Shown here piece by piece: positions 13,686 to 56,842 of a DNA stretch of 64,000 nt (the stretch's first letter is position 1; the number at the start of each line of letters is the position of its first letter). The DNA comes from Escherichia coli (lineage in GTDB: Bacteria; Pseudomonadota; Gammaproteobacteria; Enterobacterales; Enterobacteriaceae). The position numbers and the translations under genes are program-made. Under the pieces are notes generated by a model, which did not search any database, was not told where the DNA came from, and was given only the letters and a program-made list of their open reading frames with translations. The stretch lies in the NCBI RefSeq assembly GCF_001677475.2, contig NZ_CP015229.1. One strand, written 5' to 3'.

Positions 13686-14210
13686 TTACTGATAAGTAAA
13701 TGTTGCCTGAACCAGGCCGGTGATTGAACCAGGCATCACATTTCCTTTCGATACAGCCCGCGTACGAAGCTGAAGGTCATAGGCGTGAGAACCAGGAATA
13801 GGGGTATTATTGATTGATGAACCATTACCCAACGTTGTAGAACCATCCTGCGTAGTGAGCTCAAGAGAGAGGTTAGTTGCTGAACCAGTATTGGCGTAGT
13901 TTGTGGCAATATCACCGTCCGGCGTACCAGAGAAAGCGACGCTAAAGCTGGAGGTTGAGAGTGGGCAATTGGTTAATTGCAAAGAGAAGTCTTTCCAGGT
14001 GGATGCGCTTCCCGCAGCCGAAAGAGAATCCGCCTGAATATTATCGCCAATATTTACATTCACGGCACTATTCCCACCATTAACGACGCACGGAGATGCC
14101 AGTACTAATCCATTAATATTGATATCTACCGCATTAACGGAGGAAGCCCCCAGAAGACTGCTGGCGATAACAAATATTATAAACTTACGCTTCCATATTA
14201 TATTCATCAT
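13686..14210 (-). CDS. fimbrial minor subunit (pilin domain)
   Basis: 174 aa, signal peptide, C-terminal ATFTYQ motif. Confidence 0.8.
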   Translation of the reverse strand: MMNIIWKRKFIIFVIASSLLGASSVNAVDININGLVLASPCVVNGGNSAVNVNIGDNIQADSLSAAGSASTWKDFSLQLTNCPLSTSSFSVAFSGTPDGDIATNYANTGSATNLSLELTTQDGSTTLGNGSSINNTPIPGSHAYDLQLRTRAVSKGNVMPGSITGLVQATFTYQ

Positions 14211-14216
14211 TTTTCC

Positions 14217-15212
14217 TTAATTATATTGTACAGTAAATTGCAATGCGGATTTTACCTCGCCGGTGGTTATGTTATTAACATCGTCAATGTAATAAGCTAC
14301 TTTATATTCGGGTATTGTATAATCACCTGAGCCGATATAATTCAATGCAAAGTTATTGTTAAACTGATCGAATCCGCTTCCATCGGGGTTTTGAAATTGC
14401 ACATATACGCCTTGCGCATAACCGGTTCCGGTCTCACCGTTCATCACGCCATCCACCGAGCCGTGAGTTCCGTATAAGGCGCTAAATTTGTAAGAGATAC
14501 CCGTAATTGCGCCCGGACAATTTGTTAATGTTATTGTAGGTATTGGCGTAGCCAGTTGTGCCCCACTAACTGCATTACCGCCATAAAGTGTTGTAAGGTT
14601 CACTTCTTTTGGAGCATTTATTATGCATGGCGTCATGGTAGGCTGCGAAGAAACTCCTGAGCGTGCAAGAAATGATTTATCCGAATAAGTGCTTCCCGGC
14701 GGGTTGTGATAATTTAATGTGACGTCAGGAACAGTGACAAGAGGTCCTGGCGGTATCTGCTCTGTAAGACGAACTAATTCATACTTGATGTGTAGGTAAC
14801 CACTCTTGCTTAAACCTTCCGGGAAAGTCAGCGTGTGAGGTGCTGCTTTCGCCAAATTTGGTGTGGTATCTGTTGGGGTTGAAAAATTGAGTTGATATGC
14901 AATGCCAATACCTGGATTGCTAGTTTGATATATGGTTGCTCCGTCGCCCGTTGTTCCGACCACCGTCCCATTTACTGTAAGATCGGCATATGCACTGCCA
15001 GAACCTCCGGACGCGATATTGATCCAATAAAATTTATTCCAGTCATCAAACCAGGTTGTTCCACCTACACTCGTTGGTATGCTCCACGTTGAAAAATCAT
15101 GAGGGTAAGTGACTACCTGTGCAGTATCAGTCTGAAATTGCGATGCTGTTGTTGTTAACGGCAGTGATGCAATGCCTGAGATAAGAAAGATGATTACCCT
15201 TTGTTTATTCAT
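14217..15212 (-). CDS. two-domain fimbrial tip adhesin (F17-G/ElfG-like)
   Basis: About 330 aa with signal peptide at MNKQRVIIFLISGIASL, C-terminal pilin-like FTVQYN; position immediately after the usher as in F17/elf operons; track ORF extends to 15257. Confidence 0.7.
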   Translation of the reverse strand: MNKQRVIIFLISGIASLPLTTTASQFQTDTAQVVTYPHDFSTWSIPTSVGGTTWFDDWNKFYWINIASGGSGSAYADLTVNGTVVGTTGDGATIYQTSNPGIGIAYQLNFSTPTDTTPNLAKAAPHTLTFPEGLSKSGYLHIKYELVRLTEQIPPGPLVTVPDVTLNYHNPPGSTYSDKSFLARSGVSSQPTMTPCIINAPKEVNLTTLYGGNAVSGAQLATPIPTITLTNCPGAITGISYKFSALYGTHGSVDGVMNGETGTGYAQGVYVQFQNPDGSGFDQFNNNFALNYIGSGDYTIPEYKVAYYIDDVNNITTGEVKSALQFTVQYN

Positions 15213-15240
15213 AGCATTGTTTCCTCTTTTCTGGCTCAAT

Positions 15241-17814
15241 TTATTCGCACCTTCCATGGTTCTCTAATACACTATTTGTCGATTGCTGTTGAGTGACATT
15301 GAATTCAACCCGGCAATTTTGGTGCGCATTGTTTCCCCATTTAACGGCGAGTACACCACTGTCCGGCATACCTGTCATATAGACTTGTCCGTTATCGCCG
15401 ACGATAAAGCTGTTTGCATTTTCACTGTTAAGCAGAGTGACAATGGCTCCGAAAGGTATCGCTTCTCCCGATGGTTTATCCAGCATCATTAATACACGAT
15501 TACCTATGCGAATATTAAAGTTTGCTCGCGCAATAGCGCCACGTGTTGGCGTTACGGTACGTGAGGAGAGCTCAACATCTGCATTTTCAGGTAATGCTTC
15601 AGTGTTAAGTGAAATAGTGTTTTCACGATAGGGGCTGATATAAGGAACGATCGTGTAGCCACGAAAGTCGGTGTTTACACCGGTCTGGTTACTGATATTT
15701 ACACCGCTGGCACCTGGCGCTTCAACCAGTGCAGTGGTTTCTCCCAGGGACTGGCTTAGTGTGATGCCATTGGCATGAACAACAATACCCCCATCAATAC
15801 CATAGTTCACCCGGTGCTGGTTCTGGTCATAACTGTACGCAGCATTGACGCGACCATAGGTTCCCTGATAGTCCAGGCTGGCATAACCGCCATTACCTAC
15901 ACCGTGATCCGTTTCACTTTCCTGAATATTCCAGTTGAGGTTCTGATCGTCAAGCGCAGAACCATTCAGGCCTACAGAATGACTGGTATCGCCGTGTTTA
16001 CTGGTATTCAGACTGTAGCTCGCCCAACTGTTATTCAACCAGCGATTTAATGGAATATTGATATTAAATGAGAAAATCTGATCGCTATTGTAGTACTTAT
16101 TACGCGTTGTATTATTGTCGCGGTAATTACTATTGTCGTTGGTATTACGGTTATAACTGTAATTCAGGCTGTAAGTCATGCCGCTCCAGCTATTACTGTA
16201 GCCAACGCCAACAGAACGCATTTGTCGATCGCTGTTCCAGTAATCTTCGCTAATGGCATTAAGCGATACTGAACCAGCATTCTGTCCAAGATTTTGGTTA
16301 AGCAGGAACTCCGCTCGATTACGCCGCCGTTCTGGCATGTTTTGATTATTTTCACGCCAGGTGTCGAGCGTTTCTTGTAGTGAATAATAACCCGATGTGG
16401 AATAGCGGTAGCCCGCGATAGAAACGTTAGTCCCGGTGGCGAGAATGTTTTTACTATAGCGTACCCGTACTGACTGACCGCTGGTTTTCTCTTGTTCCTG
16501 CTGTTGGGACCAGGCCTGGGCGGTATCGATAGATAAGGCGCCCATTTCACCCAGGTTTTTACCCATACCGAAAATTAATGATTGATAATGTTGCGAGAAT
16601 TGCCCACCGCCATATAAGGTAAATCCAACGGGCAGGCCATATATGGCAGTTGCTTGCGTGAAATACTCTTTATCAACACGACTGTCATAAGAGCGGTATT
16701 TCCCGCTGGTCACGCTATATTTCAGGCGGCCTTCACGTTGCAACACGGGGAGCGATGCAAAGGGAACAACCTGGTGCTGTTCACTGCCATCCGCTTCTTT
16801 AACCGTTACGTCCAGATCGCCGCTACTTCCGGTCGGATACATATCCGTGATTTCAAATGCGCCTGGCGAAACATAAGTTTGATAAATGGTATAACCATTT
16901 TGTTTAACAATAACCTGCGCATTGGTTCTGGCGATTCCGCGTACAACAGGTGCATAACCACGCATACTGTCAGGTAACATATCGTCATCAGAAGCTAGCT
17001 GCACACCGCGAAACGGAACGCTATCAAACATATCTGACGGAGAAGAGCTTTCTCCAAGCGTGAGCTGGCTCTTGAGCGAAATGATATTTCGCTGGGCATA
17101 GGTATACAGAGAATCCCAGTTGTTCTGGGTATCACTACCAAAAGTGTTACGACTCCAGGTACTGTAATTACGTAAGCGCCATGGCCCGATATTTAATCCA
17201 GGAAGGAGATTAAGATAATAGCTGTCAGAATCAGATGAATTGCTATCACGCGATTTTGTATTAGCACCGGTGAAATTGTAGTTCAGCAGTAACGCATTTA
17301 TTCCTTCATCCAGATTTTCAGGCGCCACGTATCCACGCGGTTTCGCTTCGACTGCCGCTTGAGGTATTTCCACCATTAGCTGCTGACGGTTAAAAATGAG
17401 TTTTGCCGAGGCCATCGGAATTGCCGCGAGATTGGCGCAGCCTTCATTATTGATCAGTTGCGGGAATAACTCGGTACGAACACCAAATTGCTTTAATTTT
17501 TCCACCGATATACACGGTTGCAATATGTTCTGACCCTGAAGGTCTTTCTGCATACTGAAAGTAATATCGTGTGTACCCAGCGACATTTTGTTTAGGTAAA
17601 CGTCAACACGATAGGTTCCAGGAATCTGACCGACACCCTCTTCAAAAGCGCTAAGATCTGAAATACCTGAGCCAGGGCCGTCGATTCCCAGTAATGCGGG
17701 GTTAAAATATTCGCGTGCATATGCCGATGAGGCGAGAGACAGGGCGCATTGCAGAGCAACGAAACAGGCAATTTTGTTCCGTATCATTTTCTTTTTATTG
17801 ATTCTTGAACTCAT
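15241..17814 (-). CDS. fimbrial outer-membrane usher
   Basis: 857-aa ORF with signal peptide, usher-family length and Cys pair near C-terminus. Confidence 0.85.
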   Translation of the reverse strand: MSSRINKKKMIRNKIACFVALQCALSLASSAYAREYFNPALLGIDGPGSGISDLSAFEEGVGQIPGTYRVDVYLNKMSLGTHDITFSMQKDLQGQNILQPCISVEKLKQFGVRTELFPQLINNEGCANLAAIPMASAKLIFNRQQLMVEIPQAAVEAKPRGYVAPENLDEGINALLLNYNFTGANTKSRDSNSSDSDSYYLNLLPGLNIGPWRLRNYSTWSRNTFGSDTQNNWDSLYTYAQRNIISLKSQLTLGESSSPSDMFDSVPFRGVQLASDDDMLPDSMRGYAPVVRGIARTNAQVIVKQNGYTIYQTYVSPGAFEITDMYPTGSSGDLDVTVKEADGSEQHQVVPFASLPVLQREGRLKYSVTSGKYRSYDSRVDKEYFTQATAIYGLPVGFTLYGGGQFSQHYQSLIFGMGKNLGEMGALSIDTAQAWSQQQEQEKTSGQSVRVRYSKNILATGTNVSIAGYRYSTSGYYSLQETLDTWRENNQNMPERRRNRAEFLLNQNLGQNAGSVSLNAISEDYWNSDRQMRSVGVGYSNSWSGMTYSLNYSYNRNTNDNSNYRDNNTTRNKYYNSDQIFSFNINIPLNRWLNNSWASYSLNTSKHGDTSHSVGLNGSALDDQNLNWNIQESETDHGVGNGGYASLDYQGTYGRVNAAYSYDQNQHRVNYGIDGGIVVHANGITLSQSLGETTALVEAPGASGVNISNQTGVNTDFRGYTIVPYISPYRENTISLNTEALPENADVELSSRTVTPTRGAIARANFNIRIGNRVLMMLDKPSGEAIPFGAIVTLLNSENANSFIVGDNGQVYMTGMPDSGVLAVKWGNNAHQNCRVEFNVTQQQSTNSVLENHGRCE

Positions 17815-17843
17815 TACACATCCTTATGCAGTTAAATGGCGTC

Positions 17844-18521
17844 TTACAAAGAAGCGTTGTGTACGTCGCCTGCTGCACCGTAATCACTGATGATTGTCCA
17901 GCTTACATTTCCTGTTGTGTTGGCTGGAATTTGAAATGTCGCACTACTCATAGGAGCAACATATGTGGCATCAGGTAATGCTTTTCCGCCAATCTTGACC
18001 TGACTGAAGTTCATATAGTAAGCAGTTGGGTTGGTGACAGTGATTTGCTGTCCGCTACGTCGCCAGGTCAAATTTTTCACGACTTGTTCTGGTAATGTGG
18101 ACGAAATCTCATGTGGTCGATAAATCAATTTAATTCGCGTTTTAATGGCAATTTGCAAGGTGTTGACATTTTCCTGCTTTTCAGTTGCAGGTATCGTTTT
18201 AATATTCATCCAGTACATCGTTTCGCGATCTGTCGGCAGATTGCCGCCAGCGCGAATAATGCGCAACGCATTTTCTTCAGTGGCGCCCAGGCGGAACAGA
18301 GGGGGGGTAATAATAAAAGGGGCTTTGGCGTTGGTTTGCGGATCTCCATCGACCCATGATTGAATAAGGTAGGAGGATTTATCCGGATTTTTCAGGTGCA
18401 GAGACGTTTCTTTTTTATCGCCATTATAAATAACTCGTGTTCCTCCAACAATGACACCCGCCTGTGCAACAGAGTTGGATAATAACAATGCAGTAGCAAG
18501 AAAATAAGTCGATAATTTCAT
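17844..18521 (-). CDS. PapD-like periplasmic fimbrial chaperone
   Basis: 225 aa, signal peptide, two-domain chaperone pattern. Confidence 0.85.
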   Translation of the reverse strand: MKLSTYFLATALLLSNSVAQAGVIVGGTRVIYNGDKKETSLHLKNPDKSSYLIQSWVDGDPQTNAKAPFIITPPLFRLGATEENALRIIRAGGNLPTDRETMYWMNIKTIPATEKQENVNTLQIAIKTRIKLIYRPHEISSTLPEQVVKNLTWRRSGQQITVTNPTAYYMNFSQVKIGGKALPDATYVAPMSSATFQIPANTTGNVSWTIISDYGAAGDVHNASL

Positions 18522-18595
18522 CTCAAAAACCTTTAAAAGGTAAAACCGAGTAACTCGGTTTTACCTGACGTAATTATATTAAAATCAGGCGTATC

Positions 18596-19129
18596 TTAGT
18601 TATACGCTAACGTAAAGTTCACAGTACCATTTGCACTACCAACCGCTATGGTATCTTCTGTAGCGATATAACGTGCAAAGAAGTCCAGGTTAGTGTCGCC
18701 AGTGCTATTGAGAGCCGTGCTATCAGATTCAGTACCGAGAGGCAGCACACTACCGGAAGAATTCATGAGCTGAATTGCAACACCTTTTGCTACACCGGTT
18801 GTACCGTAATCAGTAACTTGTAAAGCATCCTGATTGATCTGATCCGGAGTACCATCGTATTTAACAGCAACATTTTTGAGCTCATTCGGGCAATTTTTTA
18901 ATACCAGTGTAAATTTGGTATTTGCAGCAGTAGTCCCAGCCGTAGCGTTAAAAGCTGTTTTAGCAATTGTGCCTAATTTCACTGTCATTGGAGATGACAG
19001 CGTACTGTTAACTTCACAGCCTGATTCAATGATATCTCCAATAAAATTTATTTTACCATCATCTGCAGAGGCGACAGAGCTAAGACCAGCGGTTGTTACT
19101 AAAACCAGAGCGGCTAGTTTGAATTTCAT
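18596..19129 (-). CDS. fimbrial major subunit
   Basis: 177 aa, signal peptide, Cys pair (ESGCEV...KNCP), C-terminal NFTLAYN. Confidence 0.85.
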   Translation of the reverse strand: MKFKLAALVLVTTAGLSSVASADDGKINFIGDIIESGCEVNSTLSSPMTVKLGTIAKTAFNATAGTTAANTKFTLVLKNCPNELKNVAVKYDGTPDQINQDALQVTDYGTTGVAKGVAIQLMNSSGSVLPLGTESDSTALNSTGDTNLDFFARYIATEDTIAVGSANGTVNFTLAYN

Positions 19130-19484: not shown

Positions 19485-20294
19485 ATGTTTTTAATTAATG
19501 GAAAATGTAACGATGAGTTACCGGCTTGTGACAGGAGCATACAGTTCGGTGATGGATGTTTTACAACGGCTGTGATAAACCGTGGGCAGGTAGTACTCTT
19601 GACCGCGCATTTAACACGTTTACGTGAAGCCTGCTCCCGTTTAAGCATTCCTTATTCCGACTGGTCTATACTGGAAGATGAGATGCAAAGTCTGGCACGA
19701 CAAGCTGAGCGTGGCGTTTTAAAAGTTATTATCACTCGCGGCAGCGGTGGTCGAGGATATAGCATCGCCCACTGCGAATCGCCTGGGCGCATTTTATCTG
19801 TCTCCCCCTTTCCTGAACATTACACCCGCTGGCGGCGGGAAGGTATTACTCTGGCGCTAAGTCCAGTACGCCTTGGACGTAATCCTTATCTCGCAGGAAT
19901 TAAACATCTTAATCGGCTTGAGCAAGTATTGATCCGCTCTCATCTTGAGCAGACAAACGCTGATGAGGCGCTGGTCCTTGACAGCGAAGGGTGGGTTACG
20001 GAATGCTGTGCGGCTAATTTGTTCTGGCGGAAGGGCAACGTAGTTTATACGCCGCGACTGGATCAGGCAGGTGTTAACGGCATTATGCGACAATTCTGTA
20101 TCCGTTTACTGGCACAATCCTCTTATCAGCTTGTCGAAGTACAAGCCTCGCTGGAGGAGGTGATGCAGGCAGATGAGATGGTAGTCTGTAATGCGTTGAT
20201 GCCAGTGATTCCCGTGCGTGCCTGTGGCGAAGCCTCCTTTTCGTCAACAACGCTATATGAATATTTAGCCCCACTTTGTGAGCACCCGAATTAG
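19485..20294 (+). CDS. pabC: aminodeoxychorismate lyase
   Basis: 269-aa class IV aminotransferase-fold ORF; K-12 synteny. Confidence 0.9.
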
Positions 20295-33505: not shown

Positions 33506-33650
33506 TCGGCTTGTACTGGCGGATGCGGCGCAAACGCCTTATCCGCCCTGGACAAATGGTATGAGCGGTAGGCCTGATAAGACGCGTTAAGCGTCGCATC
33601 AGGCATTCCTTCAGACTCCTCCGAATCCTTAAGTATTTCCAGCCATTCCC
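33506..33650. repeat. REP/BIME cluster
   Basis: gcggatgcggcg, gcctgataagacgcg...cgtcgcatcaggc palindromic units. Confidence 0.6.
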
Positions 33651-34332: not shown

Positions 34333-34965
34333 TTATTTCACCAGTTCGGGCCATAAACGCAAAGTCGTTCCGGCAATCTGCATCAGTTTTTCCAGCGATG
34401 CACCTTCGCGTGCGCTGATCGACATCCCCTGAATAATACAATTAAGGAATTCTGCCAGATGTGTCACGTCACAGTGGGTCGGGATTTCCCCGCGCGCTTG
34501 TCGTTGACATAAAAACTGCTGCAAAGTGCGCTCTTGCATCGCATGGCGTGATTTCAACGTATTGGCGATATCTCCTGAATCCGGGGAGAGGGTGGTGCAG
34601 TTGTTGATCATGAAGCAGCCTGCCGGGGTGTCTTTGCTGGTAAAGCAGTTGGCGATGGCAGCAAAATAGTCAGCCAGCGCAGACTCCACGCTTTTCTCTT
34701 CACAAAACAGCTGTGCTTCATGCTTAGCGGCAAAACGATCGATATAGCGGTCGAGTACGGCGCGGAATAACCCCTCTTTGTTGGTAAATTCCGCGTATAG
34801 CGTGGGCGCTTTGGCTCCGGTCGCTTCGACGAGGTCCGCAAGAGAAGTCGCTTCATAACCATGCTGCCAGAACAATTTCATGGCCTTATCAAGCGCGGCA
34901 TCCCTGTCGAACACTTTTGGGCGGCCACGGCTTTTTTTTACACATTGTGTTGAGTCAGTTGCCAT
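34333..34965 (-). CDS. comR: TetR-family repressor ComR (YcfQ)
   Basis: 210 aa from MATDSTQCVKKSRGRPK; TetR HTH; track ORF extends 26 codons upstream. Confidence 0.88.
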   Translation of the reverse strand: MATDSTQCVKKSRGRPKVFDRDAALDKAMKLFWQHGYEATSLADLVEATGAKAPTLYAEFTNKEGLFRAVLDRYIDRFAAKHEAQLFCEEKSVESALADYFAAIANCFTSKDTPAGCFMINNCTTLSPDSGDIANTLKSRHAMQERTLQQFLCQRQARGEIPTHCDVTHLAEFLNCIIQGMSISAREGASLEKLMQIAGTTLRLWPELVK

Positions 34966-35205
34966 GATGCCGTTGTACCTGGTGACTGTGAATGGAAGGT
35001 TATTATAAAAATAATCACCTCCGTTCACCAGTCCAGAAACCATAAAAATAATTGCTTTCTATTTAACTGAAATTTAAAGGTTTTTAAATTAATTAATGAT
35101 TGTTATAAAAAATATCTTGTATGTGATCCAGATCACATCTATCATTTAGTTATCGATCGTTAAGTAATTGCTTACGACGCCATTCATCTGCATAAGGCCA
35201 CTATT

Positions 35206-35463
35206 ATGAAAAACGTAAAAACCCTCATCGCTGCGGCGATTTTAAGCTCCATGTCATTTGCCAGCTTTGCGGCTGTCGAAGTTCAGTCAACGCCAGAAGG
35301 CCAACAAAAAGTCGGTACTATCAGTGCTAACGCGGGGACAAATCTGGGATCGCTGGAAGAGTAGCTGGCGCAAAAAGCGGATGAGATGGGCGCAAAATCT
35401 TTCCGTATTACTTCTGTAACCGGTCCGAATACCCTCCATGGAACAGCAGTAATTTATAAATAA
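35206..35463 (+). pseudogene. bhsA: bhsA/ycfR (YhcN/DUF1471 family stress protein) interrupted by in-frame amber codon
   Basis: 85-codon frame MKNVKTLIAAAILSSMSFASFA...GSLEE-TAG-LAQKADEMGAKSFRITSVTGPNTLHGTAVIYK; TAG at 35362-35364 (codon 53); absent from the >=60-aa ORF track for this reason. Confidence 0.8.
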
Positions 35464-35544
35464 GCATTAACCCTCATTAATGCCTGCTACTGCTGATTTT
35501 TTCCCCGCGACATGCCGTGTCGCGGGGATTTTTTTATCCGGGCT

Positions 35545-36510
35545 TTACAGAGTTTGTGGGCTCACTTGATGACGGCGGACATCCACCGGCATCCCGGAAC
35601 GGACATCCATGACATGTTGCATCACTTCAGCGTCAGTTTGTGCTGCATCTTTAAATGATTGCATTGCGCTATTCAGCGTAATTGGCAGCAGCTGCGGATC
35701 GTCATCAATCTTCTCTGACAGCGGCTGATGTACTTCAACCAGACGCGCACCGTTTGGTTCGGCAGAGACTTTAATCGGGGTGTTGATGATATTTACTTTG
35801 GTACCTGGGGTGACCTGGCTAAAGAGTGTTTTGATATCGTCATCCCGCAGACGAATACAGCCAGAACTTACCCGCATGCCAATGCCGAAATCGGCGTTCG
35901 TACCGTGAAGCAAATAAACGCCGCCATAGGCCGCCAGGCGAATCGCATGATGGCCCATTGGGTTATCCGGTCCAGCCGGAACTACCGCAGGCAACTCAAT
36001 TCCCTGTGCCTTATACCGCGCGCGGATGTTTGCCGTTGGCGTCCAGGTTGGGTTTGCACGTTTGTCTGAAACGGTGGTCACCATTGTCGGTGTCAGCGTG
36101 TCACCACCCAACTGACCAATGCCGATGGGATACACGGTTACCGAATTTTTACCCGGCGGGTAGTAATAGAGACGCAGCTCCGCAATGTTGATCACAATGC
36201 CTTCGCGCGGCGCGTCTGGAAGTAGGGTTTGCAACGGGATCGTTAACACGCTACCCGCGCGCGGTACGTAAGGATCAACGCCGGGGTTAGCCTGTAACAG
36301 AGCGAGAAAGCCGACGTTATATTTTTTGGCGATGGCTTCCAGAGAACCACCGTCATTTTCCACCACATGAAATTTGTTTTCACCAACCAGACGACTGCCC
36401 GCTGGTGGCAGCGGCCAGGTGTTGGCTTTTGCCGGTAGCGCCAGCGCCACGGCAGCGGCGAACGTAAAAAACGTTAGCCAGCGAGAAAAACGCGTTTTGA
36501 TCATCACCAA
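35545..36510 (-). CDS. ldtC: L,D-transpeptidase LdtC (YcfS)
   Basis: About 320 aa, signal peptide, YkuD domain with catalytic Cys in SSGCIRL; start may be GTG at 36507. Confidence 0.9.
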   Translation of the reverse strand: MVMIKTRFSRWLTFFTFAAAVALALPAKANTWPLPPAGSRLVGENKFHVVENDGGSLEAIAKKYNVGFLALLQANPGVDPYVPRAGSVLTIPLQTLLPDAPREGIVINIAELRLYYYPPGKNSVTVYPIGIGQLGGDTLTPTMVTTVSDKRANPTWTPTANIRARYKAQGIELPAVVPAGPDNPMGHHAIRLAAYGGVYLLHGTNADFGIGMRVSSGCIRLRDDDIKTLFSQVTPGTKVNIINTPIKVSAEPNGARLVEVHQPLSEKIDDDPQLLPITLNSAMQSFKDAAQTDAEVMQHVMDVRSGMPVDVRRHQVSPQTL

Positions 36511-41448: not shown

Positions 41449-44697
<3,249 letters not shown>

Positions 44698-44725
44698 AGG
44701 CAGTACATTAAAACAAGGAGCGGCA

Positions 44726-45637
44726 ATGTATTACGGGTTTGATATTGGTGGAACAAAAATTGCGCTTGGCGTATTTGATAGCAGTCGGCAGTTGCAGTGG
44801 GAAAAGCGGGTGCCGACACCGCGTGACAGCTATGATGCTTTTTTAGATGCAGTATGCGAGCTGGTAGCCGAAGCCGATCAGCGTTTTGGTTGTAAAGGTT
44901 ATGTCGGCATCGGTATTCCGGGAATGCCGGAAACAGAAGATGGCACGCTGTATGCCGCCAATGTCCCCGCTGCCAGCGGTAAACCGCTGCGTGCCGACCT
45001 GAGCGCACGTCTTGAGCGCGATGTACGCCTTGATAACGATGCCAACTGTTTTGCCCTTTCAGAAGCCTGGGATGATGAATTTACCCAATATCCGCTGGTG
45101 ATGGGGTTAATTCTCGGCACCGGCGTTGGCGGTGGACTGGTGTTTAACGGTAAAGCGGTGACGGGTAAAAGCTATATTACCGGCGAGTTTGGTCATATGC
45201 GTCTGCCGGTCGATGCGTTAACCATGATGGGGCTTGATTTCCCATTACGCCGCTGCGGCTGTGGTCAGCATGGCTGCATTGAAAATTATCTGTCTGGTCG
45301 CGGTTTTGCGTGGCTGTATCAACACTATTATCATCAACCGTTGCAGGCTCCCGAAATTATTGCGCTTTATGATCAAGGCGATGAGCAGGCAAGGGCGCAC
45401 GTTGAGCGTTATCTGGATTTATTAGCGGTTTGTCTGGGAAATATCCTGACCATTGTTGACCCTGATTTGCTGGTCATTGGCGGTGGCTTATCGAATTTCC
45501 CGGCAATCACAACGCAACTGGCGGACAGGCTGCCTCGTCATCTCTTACCTGTAGCTCGTGTTCCGCGCATTGAACGCGCGCGCCACGGTGATGCGGGAGG
45601 AATGCGTGGTGCGGCTTTCCTACATCTAACCGATTAA
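44726..45637 (+). CDS. nagK: N-acetyl-D-glucosamine kinase (ROK family)
   Basis: 303 aa from [11 protein letters not shown]; ROK zinc motif [10 protein letters not shown]. Confidence 0.92.
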
Positions 45638-45652
45638 ACAACAGAGGTTGCT

Positions 45653-46474
45653 ATGCTGTCGCGTCGGGGTCATCGGTTAAGTCGTTTTCGTAAAAATAAA
45701 CGCCGCCTGCGCGAGCGTTTGCGTCAGCGTATTTTTTTCAGAGATAAAGTGGTGCCGGAAGCAATGGAAAAACCAAGAGTACTCGTACTGACAGGGGCAG
45801 GGATTTCTGCGGAATCAGGTATTCGTACCTTTCGCGCCGCAGATGGCCTGTGGGAAGAACATCGGGTTGAAGATGTGGCAACGCCGGAAGGTTTCGATCG
45901 CGATCCTGAACTGGTGCAAGCGTTTTATAACGCCCGTCGTCGACAGCTGCAGCAGCCAGAAATTCAGCCTAACGCCGCGCATCTTGCGCTGGCTAAACTG
46001 CAAGACGCCCTCGGCGACCGCTTTTTGCTGGTGACGCAGAATATCGATAACCTGCATGAACGCGCAGGCAATACCAATGTGATTCATATGCATGGAGAAT
46101 TGCTGAAAGTACGTTGTGCGCAAAGCGGGCAGGTTCTCGACTGGACTGGTGATGTTACGCCAGAAGATAAATGTCATTGCTGCCAGTTTCCGGCTCCGCT
46201 GCGCCCGCACGTGGTGTGGTTTGGCGAAATGCCGCTTGACATGGATGAAATTTATATGGCACTGGCGATGGCGGATATTTTCATTGCCATTGGCACATCC
46301 GGGCATGTTTATCCGGCTGCCGGTTTTGTTCATGAAGCAAAATTGCATGGCGCGCACACCGTGGAACTCAATCTTGAGCCGAGCCAGGTTGGTAACGAAT
46401 TTGCCGAGAAATATTACGGCCCGGCAAGCCAGGTGGTGCCAGAGTTTGTTGAAAAGTTGCTGAAGGGATTATAA
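45653..46474 (+). CDS. cobB: NAD-dependent protein deacylase (sirtuin) CobB, long isoform
   Basis: 273 aa; [14 protein letters not shown] Rossmann motif and CxxC...CxxC zinc module; internal alternative start MEKPRVLVL. Confidence 0.92.
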
Positions 46475-46477
46475 AGC

Positions 46478-46600
46478 AGGAAGCATTGCCTGATGCGCTA
46501 CGCTTATCAGGCCTACAAGGGGACGCAATTAATTGAATTTGCGGGTTTTGTGGGCCGGATAAGGCGTTCGCGCCGCATCCGGCATAATACACGCGCATTT
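46478..46600. repeat. REP/BIME cluster
   Basis: gcctgatgcgctacgcttatcaggcctac and ggccggataaggcgttcgcgccgcatccggc units. Confidence 0.6.
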
Positions 46601-46611
46601 TACTGCCTCTT

Positions 46612-47400
46612 TTACCGTTTACTCGTCAATAACAACGCGGCAATAAACGTACAGACACCAATCAGCCCTGCCCAGAGTGGCGATATTCTGGTAATTGCAA
46701 AGCTATTATCGATATACAGGCATAAAGCCTGATAGCCCATATTGGCAACAGTCATCGCCACTGCAAATTTTAATGCATAAATAAAACGAGTCGTGTAGTA
46801 AAAGACCGAGGAAAATAAGATAAACGTCGCAGCCCAGGCGATAAAACCTAATGTGTTGGTACTGCCGGGGGGATCATTTTCATGCTGTTGTCCTGGATGC
46901 GGATAATACGTCAGTGGCGGCGTCGGTTGTTTTAATATCTGTACTTGTAGAACAGCCAATGCATTATTGATTCCCTGATACCATAGGCCAGCATGTAAAT
47001 AAGCCAGCGTGTGATTTTCTATCAGAAGGCCGAGATGTTTATCGTCCAGACCGCTTTCAACCTGGCCATTGGTGATCATAATTAACCGTGGTTCGCGGGT
47101 AGTAAATAGTAACAGAACACTTCCTTTTACATCACTCAATGAAGATGACGCATGCGCCAGCATCGCTTTACCATTTTGTCTGAGACTGGCTTCATTATTA
47201 ATGTCGGGTAAAACCACAATAAACGGTGCAACTCCGGTTTGTTGGCGAAAAAGCTCGGCTTTATGCGCGATCTCTTCAGCATCTGGTACAGTACCGGTAA
47301 CATCCGTAAAAAGTGTCTTCATTATTGGAATTAATGGTTTGCTGGCTGCTGTCAGAGGCAGGAGTATCAGTAAACTGAGCAGTATTATGATTTTTTTCAT
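46612..47400 (-). CDS. ycfZ: TPM-domain membrane-associated protein YcfZ
   Basis: 262 aa, signal peptide and C-terminal TM segments; K-12 synteny. Confidence 0.85.
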
Positions 47401-47900
47401 GGGCGGGACTTCCGTTTCCTGCGAGATTTTTTGGTGGAGGGGAGAGTGATTATCAGACCGACACTACCGAAAATAATGCCTGCTATGCCAACAAAGCCCC
47501 ATTTAAAAAAATTAACCCAGGGATTGTTTATTTCGGCTTGTTCTGGATGCCCTGGCGGATAATAGACATTGACTCTGCCACCTTCGCTATCTTCATAAAA
47601 ATCACTACCGATACTCGAATTGAAAATTAGCGTGTAATCTGGCGTAGGGCGAAAGGCAACCACTGGATACCAGGAGCCATTATCACCGACGTCGTTTGAG
47701 TGATTGTTGTACCAAACGACATCAACAATGATTCCTTCTGTATGAACCGCGCTTTTGGTAAAAGTAAAATGGTAACAAAAGATAATTGCAGAAATAACGA
47801 GCAATATCAGACCGATACCGAGAAAAGCGTGGGATAACACTTTACTGTCCTGACTCATTAGCCACATCCTTGCTAAATAAAAAACGGGCGGTAATACCAC
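47397..47900 (-). CDS. ymfA: inner-membrane protein YmfA
   Basis: Small TM protein overlapping ycfZ start; the true start may be about 14 codons inside the track ORF. Confidence 0.8.
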
Positions 47901-49753: not shown

Positions 49754-49788
49754 TCGAGTTCCACCTTCTTATTCATAAGGCGGGACAC
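49750..49788 (-). other. potB: potB 3'-terminal codons (…SRLMNKKVELE-stop) retained next to potC; probable prophage att core / junction
   Basis: Minus-strand frame upstream of potC reads …KVSRLMNKKVELE with TGA overlapping the potC ATG, matching the remembered PotB C-terminus; the frame closes about 40 codons upstream with non-PotB sequence. Confidence 0.55.
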
Positions 49789-49919
49789 TTTCAGGATTTT
49801 GAATTTATTCAATTTTTTCCTTTCTCCAAAATCTCTCCAAAACGTTTCCCCAAAACTAGGCCACGCATTTTACAACACTTTTTTCCTGAGATGGTGACGG
49901 ATATTCCATATGGTGTTTG

Positions 49920-51038
49920 TCAAATAACCAACTTAACCCATTCCTGACCTCGAGTATCGTTATAGCGATCGGTGGTTGCCTGGACTTTATGTCCTAGTAA
50001 TGTTTTTGTATCGATACCCTGTGCACGGTACAGCCGTTCTGATAGAGAGCGTTGTTCATGAAATGTTGGCGGAGTTTTTCCTGCTGGTGGAATTATCCCA
50101 GCCAGATCCCGTGCTTTGGCAAAGTAGTCGCTCAGGTTGTCTTTACTCATCGACTTCGGTTGTTTCTGGTGCCGACTATGGATTAGATATGGACTTAATA
50201 TTCTGTCTCGGCACCCATCAATAACTTCTTTTAACGTTATCCCAATGGCATCACAGCGTAGTGTAAGCGGTAACGCCAGACGCATTCCGGTTTTTCCTTG
50301 GGTGATATGCAAGTGTTCGTTCCACACATCTGAAAAACGCATGTGGCAAATGTCATCACGGCGCTGACCAGTAACAATCGCAAGAAGCATTGCGTTACGG
50401 ATAAAGTGTTTTTCAGGCGTTGCGTTGTAAATTTTTTGCCAGTCTTCCAGGGTGAGTCTGGCTCTGGTTACTTTAGGGATTGGTTTACGGGTAGCCTCCG
50501 GAGGATTCCATCCAGGAGGAACTTCCCCTGCATGCTGTGCTTCTTTATAAATATCAAGCCATAATCCGCGATTTACTCTCGCTGTGCTGACCATGTCTTT
50601 ATCCAGCCACTCATCCAGTATTAATGCAAAGTCTCTTACTTCCAGTTCTTTCAATGGGTGGTTTCCCAGACGGGAAACCAGGAATGCAGCCATTCGCGCT
50701 TTTTCTTTGTGGGTTGTAGCTGCAATATCTCCATTTTTCAGGCGCGCGTCCTGTATTTTCAGATATCGATCAACCCATGCCTTTAATCTGATACCCCGAC
50801 GTTTTGTTGCTGATGGACTTTCATCAATTTTGCGCATGAAATATTCAGCTTCTGCTGCAGCTATTCGCTGATTGGCTGTGGAAGCGATTTTTTCTGCCTT
50901 ACCTTTGTCTGTTCCGAGTCCGTGAAATTTTCCAGTCACAGGATTTTTATACTGGTAGTAAACTCTGCCAGTTCTGCGATCAAACTTTTCGTAAAGACCG
51001 GCTACGTCAGTGCTGTTTTTTCGTGGCCTCGGTGACAT
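49920..51038 (-). CDS. int: lambda-family tyrosine integrase
   Basis: 372 aa; C-terminal catalytic region HEQRSLSERLY…LLGHKVQATTDRYNDTRGQEW resembling lambda Int. Confidence 0.93.
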   Translation of the reverse strand: MSPRPRKNSTDVAGLYEKFDRRTGRVYYQYKNPVTGKFHGLGTDKGKAEKIASTANQRIAAAEAEYFMRKIDESPSATKRRGIRLKAWVDRYLKIQDARLKNGDIAATTHKEKARMAAFLVSRLGNHPLKELEVRDFALILDEWLDKDMVSTARVNRGLWLDIYKEAQHAGEVPPGWNPPEATRKPIPKVTRARLTLEDWQKIYNATPEKHFIRNAMLLAIVTGQRRDDICHMRFSDVWNEHLHITQGKTGMRLALPLTLRCDAIGITLKEVIDGCRDRILSPYLIHSRHQKQPKSMSKDNLSDYFAKARDLAGIIPPAGKTPPTFHEQRSLSERLYRAQGIDTKTLLGHKVQATTDRYNDTRGQEWVKLVI

Positions 51039-51285
51039 GAGTTAAAATCTCCTTCAGTGCATCATCATCGCCAGTATGAATTTCCGGCGCAATTCCCGTT
51101 TCACCAGGCCCAACAAATACTGCTCGGCGATCTATCAGCCAACGCCCACGAATTTTTTGTGGTCTTGGAACGATGTATCCTAGTTTTCCGTATTTCACCA
51201 GGGTAGTGTTTGTTATTGGGAGACTGAACCGTTTTGGTTTCCACTCGTCGAGCGTTATCAGGTACTGTTCGCTCATGGCTATCAC
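51007..51285 (-). CDS. xis: excisionase (Xis-like)
   Basis: Small basic ORF overlapping int start; LITLDEW…VFVGP pattern resembling lambda Xis; start may be at MSEQYL (51276). Confidence 0.7.
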   Translation of the reverse strand: MIAMSEQYLITLDEWKPKRFSLPITNTTLVKYGKLGYIVPRPQKIRGRWLIDRRAVFVGPGETGIAPEIHTGDDDALKEILTHVTEATKKQH

Positions 51286-51337
51286 TCCGGAACGCGCCAG
51301 TTGCAGAATATCAACGACAACTGGCGACGGTTGAACA

Positions 51338-53809
51338 TTAAAAATCAGCCTGATTCGGGATCAGTTTTTGCCAGATAGCTGAAACGTATTTTGCCTGGTG
51401 ACGAGCGTCATCAAGTGCATTATGGCGCTCACCTTCGAATGGGATAGCAGTTCTGGCATCGAAGTCTATGGTTTTCCCCAGCTCAACGATTGTGCGTACA
51501 TCGCGATCGTTGTAGTAACGCCACGGGCAGGGGATCCCCTGCCGTTCGTATGAACGGCGCAAAATCGTGTTGTCGAAGTTGGCTCCATTTCCCCAGACCT
51601 GAACAAAAAACTCACCGGAGTTTTCGGCGATAAATTCCCGCAATTGCAGTAGTGCATCATCTAACGGGATTTCATCGGTCATAATGGCAGACTGCGCTTC
51701 ACGTGATTGCTTCAGCCACCATTTAATGACGTCACGATCAATGACTCCGCCAGCAGTATCCAGATCGATGGTCTTGCTAAATTCCGGTCCCATATCACCG
51801 GTTTGCGGATCGAAAAATATTGCACCTATTGAGATAATCGGGGCATCAGGATTTTTTCCCATGGTTTCAAGGTCGATCATCAGATGAATCCCCGCTCTGC
51901 TGGTGGATGTGAGATTATGATGACTGTTCATCTTAATTAAGGGATCTGTCGCCTCGCCAGTTTTATTATCGCTGGCGTGATGCTGATTGCCGCCAGGGTT
52001 CTCCTTGTGTGGATGTTCAGCGCCTTCCATTTCCTCCGGATCATTTTCCTGAACTTCAGGCTGATTCTCTTCATCGAATATTTCCTGGTATGTTGCGTCA
52101 CCCATCACCGCGCCACAATCAGGGCAGTTGCCGCCACCGCTCTGACCGCAGGCTGTGCAGACTTTTTCCGGTTCCTGTTGCGCTACTGGCTCAGGTTGTT
52201 TCGTTTCTGGCTCGTTTTGTTGCGTATTTGGGCTGTTTTGTTCCGCTTTCTGGTCGTTCTGTTCCGTTTCTTGCTGGTTCTGGTTCACAGAATCGCGGGT
52301 TTCAATCCCCTTCACCCATTTCGGATCATTCGGATCGCTAATCCCTGCAACAAATTCACCACGTGATACTGCAAGCAGTTCATCGGCGTCATGCTGGCTG
52401 ATATTGGCTGCCTGCATAATTTTGTTTACTTCGTCAGCGGTAACTTTTACCGGCCCTGGTTGTGCGGTCGTGTCAGATGCACCAGTATTTTGTTGTGAAC
52501 CTGAGTATGTACCGTTTTTGCGGGCGAAATATTCTTCTTTCGTGATTTCAGTAGCCCCGGCAGCCAGTGCCTTATCCAGACCAGAAAGTTTGTTTGCGCG
52601 ACCGTATTTTTCGCCATCCTTGTCGGTGAAGAGGAAGTAGAATGGCCCCTCACGCTCTACAGATGGTTCGACTTCCACTTTGCATTCGGTTTTTTCGTTG
52701 TCCGGAATTGCCGTTTCCACTGCATCAGTTTCTGGTACTGGCGACGAGAGAGTATCAGTTGCGCTCTGATTTCTTCCTTCATCTTCAAACACGCCCTTTG
52801 TAGTCAGGTATTCAGTAATGTATTTGTTCAGTGCCACAGGGTCTTTGTGAATGTCGATCGGACGTTCACGAACAAGGCCAAAAATAGTCTGGCGGTCGTA
52901 GCGAAGGGCATCAGGCTGTTTGCGCATTGATGCCGAGATACGCTTCCAGTCTTCGCGGTCGTTGTCGATAACTTCATTTTTTGCCCAGCGATGGATGCTG
53001 CCATCAATGTTTCCGACATCCACATCACCAGGCCAGAGAGCGTAGGCCAGTTCGTCATCCAGTGTTTTCCATGTCTGCTTGTATTCGCGATGAGTGGCAG
53101 CAATGACCGGGCTGATTTTTCCTGTTGAATTTTCAGTGTGCTGTTGATTGGCTCTGGCGCGGGCGAGATCAACAACAGACGTGTATTTTCCGGTTTCCTT
53201 GCGTTCACCTTCGCGACGTTTTTTCCAGATGCGCATCTCTGCCTGAATTTCGGGCCATTTGGCACCAGGCTTACATTTATGCTTAACCCACCCGATGGCA
53301 TGCAGCTTAAGCTCCGGATACATGGCGTTAACTTCTGGCATTTTCATCAACGCTTCAACGATATGTCCGTCGAATGTTGCCATGTCTTCCTGCAACAATT
53401 CCTGCGCGCTAATCACCATATCAACGGTGATGTTTTCACATGTACCGAACTTAACCAGGACCGCGTTCTGTACTTCAAGGGACAGCTTGTCAAAATTGAC
53501 GTTAATAGGATCGGATTCTGGTTCGACCGGAATAAAGGAAGCGGATTCCTCATCCCAGCGGTTTTCCTGCATATATTCGGTATCCCAGGAGTCGATAGCA
53601 GGGCGGGGCATGCCGGGTTTATCTTCGCAGACAAGAAATTTATAAGCGCAGTCCTGAGCAGCAGGATATTGCTCCAGGAATTGCCAGGTAAATTTGGCAC
53701 GGGCGCGGCGTTCATCACCGGCTTCAATGGCAGTGGCTACAGCAACTGCGCCCTCTTCTTTTATTGCCTGTTCGTCCGGAATGGCGGCGCAAATAAAGAC
53801 TTTACTCAT
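51338..53809 (-). CDS. large phage protein with C-terminal DEDDh 3'-5' exonuclease domain (often annotated exonuclease VIII-like)
   Basis: 823 aa; C-terminal IHLMIDLETMG…GNGANFDNTIL…HNALDDARH (DnaQ-like Exo I/II/III motifs); central CTACGQSGGGNCPDCG zinc ribbon; Q/E-rich linker. Confidence 0.8.
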   Translation of the reverse strand: MSKVFICAAIPDEQAIKEEGAVAVATAIEAGDERRARAKFTWQFLEQYPAAQDCAYKFLVCEDKPGMPRPAIDSWDTEYMQENRWDEESASFIPVEPESDPINVNFDKLSLEVQNAVLVKFGTCENITVDMVISAQELLQEDMATFDGHIVEALMKMPEVNAMYPELKLHAIGWVKHKCKPGAKWPEIQAEMRIWKKRREGERKETGKYTSVVDLARARANQQHTENSTGKISPVIAATHREYKQTWKTLDDELAYALWPGDVDVGNIDGSIHRWAKNEVIDNDREDWKRISASMRKQPDALRYDRQTIFGLVRERPIDIHKDPVALNKYITEYLTTKGVFEDEGRNQSATDTLSSPVPETDAVETAIPDNEKTECKVEVEPSVEREGPFYFLFTDKDGEKYGRANKLSGLDKALAAGATEITKEEYFARKNGTYSGSQQNTGASDTTAQPGPVKVTADEVNKIMQAANISQHDADELLAVSRGEFVAGISDPNDPKWVKGIETRDSVNQNQQETEQNDQKAEQNSPNTQQNEPETKQPEPVAQQEPEKVCTACGQSGGGNCPDCGAVMGDATYQEIFDEENQPEVQENDPEEMEGAEHPHKENPGGNQHHASDNKTGEATDPLIKMNSHHNLTSTSRAGIHLMIDLETMGKNPDAPIISIGAIFFDPQTGDMGPEFSKTIDLDTAGGVIDRDVIKWWLKQSREAQSAIMTDEIPLDDALLQLREFIAENSGEFFVQVWGNGANFDNTILRRSYERQGIPCPWRYYNDRDVRTIVELGKTIDFDARTAIPFEGERHNALDDARHQAKYVSAIWQKLIPNQADF

Positions 53810-53902
53810 TTTGTTTTAACCTCATTACAGATTTAAGGGTGAACAAATCCCTGCCATTGCTGGCATATAAAAATGAAACCGGATATTAATTACGGTGCTG
53901 TT

Positions 53903-54094
53903 TTAAAGTCCTGCCGGTATTTCGTTATTATTAGTGTGAGTAGTTTTATCTACCGGATAACAGTTACCGGGAATTTTTTGTTCTGCTGCTGCAGCCATGC
54001 ATTCTTTCATTGAACCGTATAAGCCAGTCACCAGCTCAAGAGATTCGCCGGAAACAAGATAAACTGTCAGAACGAGTGCAAATGTTGTATTCAT
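53903..54094 (-). CDS. small membrane-anchored protein (kil-position), unknown function
   Basis: 63 aa with N-terminal hydrophobic helix; start overlaps upstream gene stop (ATGA). Confidence 0.55.
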   Translation of the reverse strand: MNTTFALVLTVYLVSGESLELVTGLYGSMKECMAAAAEQKIPGNCYPVDKTTHTNNNEIPAGL

Positions 54095-54279
54095 TGTTTA
54101 TATCCTTTTTGCAGCAGGTCCAGACGAGCCAGCATTGAAGGAATGCATACTTCATTTAACAGGTCCTGCTCGAGTTTTCTCTGCTTAATGGCGTCTTCAA
54201 TAAATGTTTTGTCTCCAGTGATAACGCCAATTTCGAAACGAAGTTCAGACGTGCTGGCATTACATGATAACTTTTCCAT
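54091..54279 (-). CDS. small hypothetical protein (kil-position)
   Basis: 62 aa from MEKLSCNASTSEL with GAGGA SD 9 nt upstream; the track's 97-aa version lacks an RBS and overlaps an inverted repeat. Confidence 0.55.
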   Translation of the reverse strand: MEKLSCNASTSELRFEIGVITGDKTFIEDAIKQRKLEQDLLNEVCIPSMLARLDLLQKGYKQ

Positions 54280-54296
54280 TATCGCGTCCTCAACAA

Positions 54297-54444
54297 TGAA
54301 TTTTGTGATGCGGTGCCTGGTGCCTCCAGGTGACGTTAACCAGTTAACAATTAACGCAGGATACAGAGAATCCACCCATAACACTGTTTTTGGTTTTTAC
54401 TGTTCCGCGTGCGCTGAGCCGCATTCACCGCATCACAAAATTCA
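54297..54444. repeat. perfect 19-bp inverted repeat pair (tgaattttgtgatgcggtg / caccgcatcacaaaattca) flanking a 110-bp palindrome-rich spacer
   Basis: Arms at 54297-54315 and 54426-54444 checked base by base; spacer contains cctggtgcctccagg and gttaaccagttaac palindromes. Confidence 0.85.
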
Positions 54445-54856
54445 CTTTTAAAAAAGGGCGGCAGAGCAGTCACGGAGTAAAACTGATACCGCCAAATGTC
54501 ACCAGAATATTGATAACAGAGGGCGTTGTAGCGGGGTTGTCACTTAAGCGTATGGTCAACCTGACAACCCGGTGTCCTCAACGGGGAAAGGCGTCCCTCC
54601 CACCCCCGCCATACTTACCGCCGCGCCATTTCGCGGGTCGCCACAACCGGAAGCGCACGGTCGAATTAAATTTAACGACACCGTGCAGTGAGACGAACTT
54701 CGCCGTGCGCTTTCGTGTTGTGTGCCTGCTTTTAACCACGTCAGGCGAGGTGGTTTCCGTCATTCCCCAACGACAGGAAATCTGTATAATCTGGGTATCC
54801 CCAACGATCCAAGGAAATCATATGACAGAGCAAAGAGCACAAGCAGGTGATGGTGT

Positions 54857-55303
54857 ATGGACCGGGATGATATTCTTGACAGAATTTTTTATGGCTATTT
54901 TCTTGAGCAACTGTTTTCTGTAGCGACTGGTCGTCTCGATAAACTTCTCTCAGTAGTGAGTATTATCCTCGGTTCATCTGTCATTGGCGGATTCATTCCG
55001 GAAATTTCTGGCGTTTTTATTGTTGTGATCGCAACCGTCCAAACGATTTATGGATTCGGACAAAAGTCAGGTAATACCATGAGAAAATCCGCAGAATATT
55101 TGCAGCTTTTTGATGATGCAGAAAAATATTCTGATTCGGAATTGAAAATTCAGTTAAAAACTCTGGAAAAAACAGATGATCATATTTGGTCATCACTTAA
55201 AGATATTGCGATCTTAAAAACACAGATCAAAATAGGCGTCTCCATCGAACAACAAGAGAAGTTGCCCACAAAATCCAAATTGATGCGATTTCTTTGTGGT
55301 TAG
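54857..55303 (+). CDS. 2-TM membrane protein on opposite strand at the Rac sieB position; candidate superinfection-exclusion / abortive-infection effector
   Basis: 148 aa, SD AGGTGA 6 nt upstream; two adjacent hydrophobic helices (LSVVSIILGSSVIGGFIP / ISGVFIVVIATVQTIYGF) then charged C-terminal tail; convergent with flanking minus-strand genes. Confidence 0.65.
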   Translation: MDRDDILDRIFYGYFLEQLFSVATGRLDKLLSVVSIILGSSVIGGFIPEISGVFIVVIATVQTIYGFGQKSGNTMRKSAEYLQLFDDAEKYSDSELKIQLKTLEKTDDHIWSSLKDIAILKTQIKIGVSIEQQEKLPTKSKLMRFLCG

Positions 55304-55392
55304 GAATATCCAGATTGTTAAAGAGCATGCCGGAGGTTTATCCGTGTCCGGCGCACGCACTTCATCTGCGGAGAACTACTTGAGCTCATTGG

Positions 55393-55608
55393 TCAGTAGT
55401 TTTCAATCACTCGCGAAACGTTTAATGCCGCGCTTTTTGCCAGAGTGGTAATATCCTGCTCCGCTGACACCAGTTCTTTAGAGAGGCGCTCTTTGTAGTC
55501 AGCGGCCTGCTTCAGGTCATTAATGGCGCGTATCTTTCCGCACATCCATTCGTAAATTTCATCCTCGGTATAGTCTGGTGCGATGATGACGGGTTCTCGT
55601 TTCTGCAT
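55393..55608 (-). CDS. hypothetical protein
   Basis: 71-aa ORF MQKREPVIIAPDYTEDEIYEWM…; hairpin gccggag…tccggc between it and the convergent 2-TM gene. Confidence 0.5.
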   Translation of the reverse strand: MQKREPVIIAPDYTEDEIYEWMCGKIRAINDLKQAADYKERLSKELVSAEQDITTLAKSAALNVSRVIENY

Positions 55609-55637
55609 ACTGATTCCTCGCGGTGCCGCTTCGCTTA

Positions 55638-55766
55638 TCAGCCGTTAGATTTTGCCGAACTGGAAAGCGCCTGTTTAAACTCACTGAAGCTGAGAGCTTC
55701 TTCGCCTTCGGCAAGGTCTTCGAAGTATTCTTCGTAAGCCTTTTCCATGATTGCGTCGAAATCCAT
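55638..55766 (-). CDS. small acidic hypothetical protein (42 aa), ydaF-position
   Basis: Hand translation MDFDAIMEKAYEEYFEDLAEGEEALSFSEFKQALSSSAKSNG; starts 2 nt after stop of upstream gene; not in track (<60 aa). Confidence 0.5.
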   Translation of the reverse strand: MDFDAIMEKAYEEYFEDLAEGEEALSFSEFKQALSSSAKSNG

Positions 55767-55767
55767 A

Positions 55768-56010
55768 TCACTCACCTGAATTTCTTTCCAGCCAGCGACG
55801 AGCGCCAGTTTCGGTTTTAAACGTTTTACTTTTGGTATACGTCATCGCGGTGAATGTGCCGTCCTGGTTGGGAAACACGCCGTACACCAGAGATTCGTTG
55901 TTGCCAAGATCGATAGTATCCATGTTGACCTCATTTCCCCTTAACGCTGGGGTAGCGGAACTAAAAACCTGCTGCGCTGTTATACAAAGTGTTCCCGCCG
56001 TCATGTTCAT
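55768..56010 (-). CDS. small hypothetical protein, ydaG-position
   Basis: 80-aa track ORF; real start may be the internal Met (MDTIDLGNNESL…). Confidence 0.45.
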   Translation of the reverse strand: MNMTAGTLCITAQQVFSSATPALRGNEVNMDTIDLGNNESLVYGVFPNQDGTFTAMTYTKSKTFKTETGARRWLERNSGE

Positions 56011-56126
56011 ACGCCTCGGGCTGGCTACTTAATCCCTGACCACTACCGGGTAACTCTAGGTATTGCCCTGTATTGTGTGGGACGGGATGGGTTGGTATGG
56101 GAAAACTATAGGAAATGCCTAATTGC

Positions 56127-56147
56127 TTGTCAATAGGCTATGCCTAA
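56127..56147. promoter_or_regulatory. operator-like site, downstream copy of 21-bp inverted repeat flanking repressor gene
   Basis: ttgtcaataggctatgcctaa is the exact reverse complement of 56772-56792; additional tgcctaat half-sites at 56114-56124 and 56160-56170. Confidence 0.6.
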
Positions 56148-56241
56148 TGATTTGGGTGCGACCTAATAGGTGATGGTTTGTGGGAGAGGTAGTAGGAGTT
56201 AACTAACGGGAACTAGGAATTTCCCGTCGGACCATATAAGT

Positions 56242-56718
56242 TTAAGTTCCTGTCTTGGTGATGTTCTGGCTTTTCCGTTTTGATTCTTGATTTTTCAGAT
56301 AGTTAGCTACCTTCATTTCCATTGCGGCAATGTAGGCGCGAACGTCATGATCAACCCAACTAGGCTCCGTAGCATTTCCAGATAAGAGGAAAGCCACAAT
56401 TGCTCTTTTTTCATCAGAGGCGGCTTGATAAAGGCTGTTTATGTCTAAAAGTTCACTTTTTGTATCTGAAGTGGATGGGGTTGGTATGGGGTATTCGTTA
56501 AGCCCCCAATGCTCTGGACCAACCACATCAGAAAAGAAACGCCATAGTTCTGGAAGTTTGTCTTTACTTATCGAACCTTTCTTAATCCAGTCATGGATTG
56601 ATGGTGGTTGGACTTTGAAATGACGTGCGATTTCCGCCTTTGATTTGACGGCTCCTGATGCAATTTTTTTGTTAATGGCCTGCTCTATCGCTCGGCCTAA
56701 GTCTTTACCACTAAGCAT
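56242..56718 (-). CDS. prophage repressor, RacR-like (HTH, no S24 peptidase domain)
   Basis: 158 aa with N-terminal HTH (KAEIARHFKVQPPSIHDWIKKG); divergent from Cro-like gene; same length and position as Rac RacR. Confidence 0.75.
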   Translation of the reverse strand: MLSGKDLGRAIEQAINKKIASGAVKSKAEIARHFKVQPPSIHDWIKKGSISKDKLPELWRFFSDVVGPEHWGLNEYPIPTPSTSDTKSELLDINSLYQAASDEKRAIVAFLLSGNATEPSWVDHDVRAYIAAMEMKVANYLKNQESKRKSQNITKTGT

Positions 56719-56771
56719 TGCTTAATAGTCTCCTATGCGCATCGCGTTAGGCAATACCTACTCTCGAAGCG

Positions 56772-56792: not shown

Positions 56793-56842
56793 TCACATTA
56801 GGCTAAGCCTAATATTATTGTGTGTTTTTTGGAGTTCATTCG

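Follow-up and report, generated by a model that had tools for sequence, protein, structure and literature searches.

A predicted bhsA (ycfR/comC) null allele with an amber codon at position 53 in a natural Escherichia coli lineage

The gene bhsA is among the most strongly stress-induced genes of E. coli in laboratory studies. In the 64-kb stretch of E. coli DNA analysed here (the window), its frame at 35206–35463 (+), 85 codons followed by TAA, contains one interruption. This raises the question of whether the interruption is a genuine, inherited inactivation of the gene and, if so, whether it is an ordinary loss or the result of selection, recombination or an error. A passage in PMC3579871, citing Zhang 2007 and Deng 2011, states that ycfR/bhsA influences stress resistance and biofilm of E. 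coli via surface hydrophobicity, and the function of the intact gene is also covered in PMC3909829.

Translation of 35206–35463 on the plus strand gives MKNVKTLIAAAILSSMSFASFAAVEVQSTPEGQQKVGTISANAGTNLGSLEE*LAQKADEMGAKSFRITSVTGPNTLHGTAVIYK*, in which the lone internal stop is the amber codon TAG at codon 53 (35362–35364) and the terminal TAA lies at 35461–35463. The gene is identical to that of K-12 at 256 of 258 nucleotides, and 84 of the 85 codons give the K-12 residue. The two differences are the C>T transition at 35362, which places TAG where K-12 has CAG (Gln53), and a synonymous ACA>ACT change at codon 38, a codon that is ACT in other wild strains as well. Codon 53 is CAG in all three sequences of the bhsA alignment (MG1655 and two wild strains). 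When a 59-nt probe with the SNP in the middle was searched, 5,423 complete RefSeq E. coli genomes were matched, none of them at 100%. The identity was 98.3% (one mismatch) among the matches listed, and the T is therefore absent from those complete genomes. The initial annotation had placed an in-frame amber codon at codon 53 where CAG was expected from the BhsA peptide (...GSLEEQLAQKADEMG...); this peptide is right, and translation, alignment and probe all bear out the amber codon. Two further ORFs, 35258–35419 (+) and 35287–35439 (−), were rejected as genes, being short, out of frame inside bhsA and unsupported. A Dcm (CCWGG) deamination hotspot was also rejected as the source of the transition, since the sequence context, GAGCAGCTGG, is no Dcm site.

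The position of the frame is that of the orthologous gene. The order ndh-ycfJ-comR-bhsA-ldtC-mfd is the same in the window, in K-12 and in wild strains, bhsA is annotated in the orthologous loci, and the frame is divergent from comR (ycfQ) and convergent with ldtC (ycfS). Its full-length identity is that of a bhsA/ycfR orthologue, a member of the YdgH/BhsA/McbA-like family (PF07338). A Pfam search of the repaired BhsA finds PF07338 as the sole domain, at residues 34–85 (model positions 2–55 of 55, E=3.5e-20; 35305–35460, +), and two homologues of solved structure, 2NOC and 2MA4, align from residue 29/33 to residue 85, the last one. The bhsA locus of the window thus lacks an unbroken ORF with a complete PF07338 domain: codons 34–52 precede the stop, so that 19 of the 52 domain residues are kept and 33 are lost. 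It had been claimed that the C-terminal half of the domain would be missing, which is correct in that most of the domain is gone but understates a loss of this size.

The stop lies downstream of a putative Sec signal peptide, MKNVKTLIAAAILSSMSFASFA, read from the sequence at codons 1–22 (35206–35271, +). We take this peptide to be cleaved after residue 22, as in the curated E. coli BhsA entry. Translation would end at the TAG and release a 52-residue precursor, in which the signal peptide is followed by about 30 residues of the mature protein. This fragment should be unable to fold, and the truncated product should be non-functional. The next in-frame ATG (Met61) would yield a peptide of 25 residues that lacks the signal sequence. 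With a lone in-frame stop relative to intact orthologues and the remaining frame kept, the locus is, judged from its sequence, a bhsA pseudogene or null allele and no functional member of the family.

The elements around the gene are intact. The bhsA intrinsic terminator (35502–35538, +), common to the convergent ldtC, has a 12-bp stem with 8 G-C pairs, the stem part lying at 35502–35528 and the T run after it. Since bhsA is monocistronic with its own terminator and ldtC is convergent, the stop has no polar effect. The neighbouring comR (ycfQ), a TetR-family repressor gene (34333–34965, −), and ldtC (ycfS; 35545–36507, −) each match K-12 over the full length with 1 amino acid difference, and both are without an internal stop. 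A reading of the comR-bhsA intergenic sequence reveals a perfect 8-bp inverted repeat, ATGTGATC-CA-GATCACAT, at 35121–35138, 68 nt upstream of the bhsA ATG and the same in K-12 and wild strains; it is a candidate ComR operator, intact in the window. Alignment also locates two leader substitutions (35174–35180, +), G>A at 35174 and T>C at 35180, 26–32 nt upstream of the ATG. Among the sequences compared, both occur only in the window and in two other assemblies, L006 (GCA_002516285.1) and L015 (GCA_019141265.1). Compared to the intact K-12 bhsA/ycfR/comC (WP_000800153.1, 'multiple stress resistance protein BhsA'), the window has the gene at the same position and of the same length, with the same inverted repeat, start codon and terminator, whereas the TAG at codon 53, the product ending at residue 52 and the two lineage-specific leader substitutions set it apart. 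In the ndh-ycfJ gap, sub-threshold Rfam naRNA4 matches on both strands (33513–33608) are typical of REP elements.

The Q53* allele is already present in public assemblies, and bhsA itself is well known. A search for exact copies of the 52-aa product turned up calls on 80 contigs, from 122 blocks (NCBI isolates, ENA metagenomes, Logan), and all named sources label the carriers E. coli. L006 matches the window without a single difference over 10,159 nt, including the TAG, and may be the window's own genome. L015, which was reached through the lineage-specific YcfT protein as an assembly independent of the window, carries the TAG as well; 1 SNP in 14,074 nt (99.993% identity) separates it from the window, and no bhsA protein is called in it. 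The presence of the TAG in both L015 and L006 indicates that it is inherited. The proteins ANO88409 (fimbrial chaperone), ANO88410 (major fimbrial subunit) and ANO88429 (YcfT) belong to one E. coli chromosome, and the numbering from ANO88410 to ANO88429 fits the gene order only with bhsA given no protein accession. This accession arithmetic suggests that the depositor's annotation already treats bhsA as a pseudogene. The complete RefSeq set that was searched seems to be without the chromosome record bearing these ANO884xx proteins. It is noted that exact-protein look-ups merge similar contigs, and 23 further contigs match YcfT.

The closest complete RefSeq E. coli genome reaches at most 98.1% identity in the 24 kb and at most 98.6% in the 14 kb surrounding the locus, and no close relative with an intact allele was found among the complete genomes (none >98.6%). 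A scan of JGI metagenomes for the lineage haplotype with Y at the SNP gave 0 matches. The missing complete-genome match prompted us to consider Shigella-type decay, which was rejected: the carriers are labelled E. coli, no IS elements were seen in the window, and bhsA is the only gene with an internal stop among ~40 K-12 orthologues in the window (~35 others are full-length and gap-free). The many pseudogenes and IS elements of reductive decay are thus not found, the large insertions being a fimbrial operon and a prophage only. The initial annotation had also raised a laboratory-acquired change. That view is not sustained, because the lambdoid prophage by potC and the private fimbrial operon mark a wild lineage and no K-12 derivative, and L015 and L006 share the allele; a laboratory origin is therefore ruled out.

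These two insertions are more unusual than the bhsA allele. The six-gene chaperone-usher fimbrial operon (13144–19129, −) lies between fabF (11844–13085) and pabC (19485–20294), and the 5' third of pabC beside it is too diverged for K-12 alignment. It encodes a 177-aa major subunit, a 225-aa chaperone, an 857-aa usher, a protein of 346 aa and two minor subunits that resemble FimG. The NCBIfam matches of the operon are all under the curated cut-offs; the 346-aa protein, a possible tip adhesin, is without an NCBIfam match. Megablast against 5,426 complete RefSeq E. coli genomes gave no match to the operon; with blastn, the only matches were to paralogous ushers, with about 70% identity and 20% of the gene covered. 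Exact copies of the major subunit are present on 222 Escherichia-labelled public contigs. The lambdoid prophage (~49754–64000) is inserted directly upstream of potC and continues past the window end, with an integrase at 49920–51038 (−) and an 823-aa exonuclease-like ORF at 51338–53809 (−). It separates potCD from potAB, potB and potA not being found in the window. One complete genome, that of strain 08-00022, matches 95% of the prophage stretch at 96.3% identity, and other strains, including Res13-Lact-PEA14-20, match about two-thirds of it at roughly 91–94% identity. In addition, the K-12 identity falls from about 98–99.9% to 95–97% over 41560–47858 (lolC, lolD, lolE, nagK, cobB, ycfZ, ymfA), with ymfA only 79% identical; this looks like an imported diverged segment. 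An indel is present near the 3' end of cobB, for which a 273-aa product is called in L015.

We consider that bhsA in the window is very probably a genuine, inherited null allele, ordinary in origin, of a dispensable gene in a natural lineage of E. coli. A spontaneous C>T change would have turned the Gln53 codon CAG into the amber TAG, with the promoter region, leader, start codon and terminator left apparently intact and the other codons undamaged. As no further damage is found, the lesion appears to be young. The allele would persist because bhsA is dispensable in nature, and the same type of mutation is recurrent in E. coli, affecting codon 53 as well as three of the other four Gln codons.

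Recurrence at codon 53 itself is suggested by a second, K-12-like background (phylogroup-A-like; GCA_003604345.1, GCA_004054315.1 and gut metagenomes), in which the C>T change and the 52-aa product are the same as in the window and the flanks are diverged. Its loci L004, L005 and L007–L010 form one clone, 1–9 SNPs per 10 kb apart, and differ from the window by 177–184 substitutions per 10 kb (about 1.8%) and from MG1655 by 2–9. Complete genomes nearly identical to this background all have C. A metagenome contig, L011, is 15–18 SNPs in 6.4 kb from the clone and 17 from MG1655, and its bhsA-flank haplotype is that of the clone. On this ENA metagenome scaffold, mfd (2740–6245) is called as two ORFs of 379 and 782 aa, which points either to a further disruption or to an artefact of metagenome assembly. 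A K-12 laboratory origin of the second background was considered and not adopted; the background is seen in isolates and gut metagenomes, at 2–9 SNPs per 10 kb from MG1655, which is not decisive. The lineage of the window is not affected by this point.

Other codons of bhsA have also been hit. Of 27 single-base routes to a stop, 5 are transitions, all of them C>T at Gln codons, and four of these five codons have been seen mutated (the product of Q27* is too short for listing). Among the short forms in the 90% cluster of the truncated product (loci L016–L031), Q33* (CAA>TAA) was found on 5 haplotypes, Q34* (CAA>TAA) on 3 and Q56* (CAA>TAA) on 2–3, inside long contigs. These alleles of wild E. 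coli share the gene and the C>T class with Q53*, but are ochre and not amber. The cluster also contains a 53-aa form (43 contigs) and 51-aa and 47-aa forms, which could be contig breaks at IS insertions or transversion stops. A search of the literature turned up no description of natural bhsA nonsense alleles.

As controls, matching Gln>stop products were built for neighbouring genes, with raw counts of 0–135 contigs. Such raw counts were rejected as a measure of nonsense frequency, since contig-end fragments account for all of the yceD Q56* products shown and for most of those of hinT, ycfJ and ycfP; the counts below are restricted to stops verified to lie within a contig. In-contig C>T stops were found on 1 background for hinT Q60*, 2 for hinT Q75*, 1 for ycfJ Q66*, 2 for ycfP Q55* and 0 for yceD Q56*. 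The four bhsA sites, with 2, 3, 5 and 3 backgrounds, exceed the controls (one-sided Mann-Whitney p=0.016), in a crude comparison of 4 vs 5 sites based on the 24 longest contigs per allele and affected by clonal sampling and contig-end fragments. Like bhsA Q53*, the alleles of the non-essential hinT, ycfJ and ycfP are single C>T stops in otherwise intact genes; they occur on fewer backgrounds and fewer contigs than the bhsA alleles. This modest excess is compatible with purifying selection being weaker on bhsA than on the genes around it, and positive selection is not established.

The alternative that deserves the most weight is that loss of bhsA is selected in some niches (aggregative, high-biofilm surface), Q53* being one of many convergent losses. 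The same C>T change on two backgrounds this far apart, the stops at four of the five transition-accessible codons on 2–5 haplotypes each, and the clonal expansion of several alleles (23 of the 24 longest Q53* contigs being real alleles) are in favour of this reading, and the excess of backgrounds per site over the neighbouring controls leaves room for a mild positive effect. However, the controls hinT, ycfJ and ycfP show the same phenomenon, the test has the small and uneven sampling given above, Q53* is rare (0 of 5,423 complete genomes), and relaxed constraint accounts for the data equally well. We therefore regard selection as unlikely, and the adaptive change envisaged in the initial annotation is not shown.

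It is still less likely that Q53* arose once and then passed from one background to the other through homologous recombination. E. coli does recombine, and the window has imported segments of its own (lolC-ycfZ, ymfA). However, the nearest markers that separate the two Q53* backgrounds are at 35319 and 35551, so that a transferred tract with the T would be confined to 231 nt and would have to carry this change alone, and the C>T changes at other Gln codons on several haplotypes indicate that recurrent mutation is common in bhsA. Independent mutation on the window and K-12-like backgrounds is the simpler explanation.

Continued function of bhsA through amber readthrough, whether natural or due to a suppressor tRNA (supE-type or phage-borne), is highly improbable. 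ARAGORN found no tRNA genes in the 64-kb window; as the window amounts to about 1% of the genome and the prophage runs beyond its end, there is space elsewhere for a suppressor, and the glnV locus of K-12 is located well away from this region. In contrast, supE-type suppressors are laboratory mutations of K-12 and the lineage of the window is wild, UAG readthrough without a suppressor is generally low in E. coli, and an Rfam scan of 33.5–37 kb found no recoding signal or RNA family at the locus, only sub-threshold REP-like or terminator-like matches. A sequencing or assembly error at 35362 in a strain with an intact bhsA, which a single-base difference in one window might have suggested, can be set aside, as the same T is found in L006 and in the independent L015, which differs elsewhere by 1 SNP, the 52-aa product is called across NCBI, ENA and Logan contigs, and 35362 is outside any homopolymer run.

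With an inherited and ordinary null allele as the preferred reading, the phenotype predicted by analogy with the literature would match a bhsA/ycfR deletion: changes in aggregation, hydrophobicity and biofilm, reduced tolerance of some stresses, and an outer membrane more permeable to copper. The strain and its lineage should be regarded as a natural bhsA (ycfR/comC) null in work on biofilm, produce attachment, chlorine and oxidative stress, and copper; outside strain annotation the allele is of little consequence. The recurrent bhsA nulls in wild E. coli argue that there are niches in which the gene can be dispensed with.
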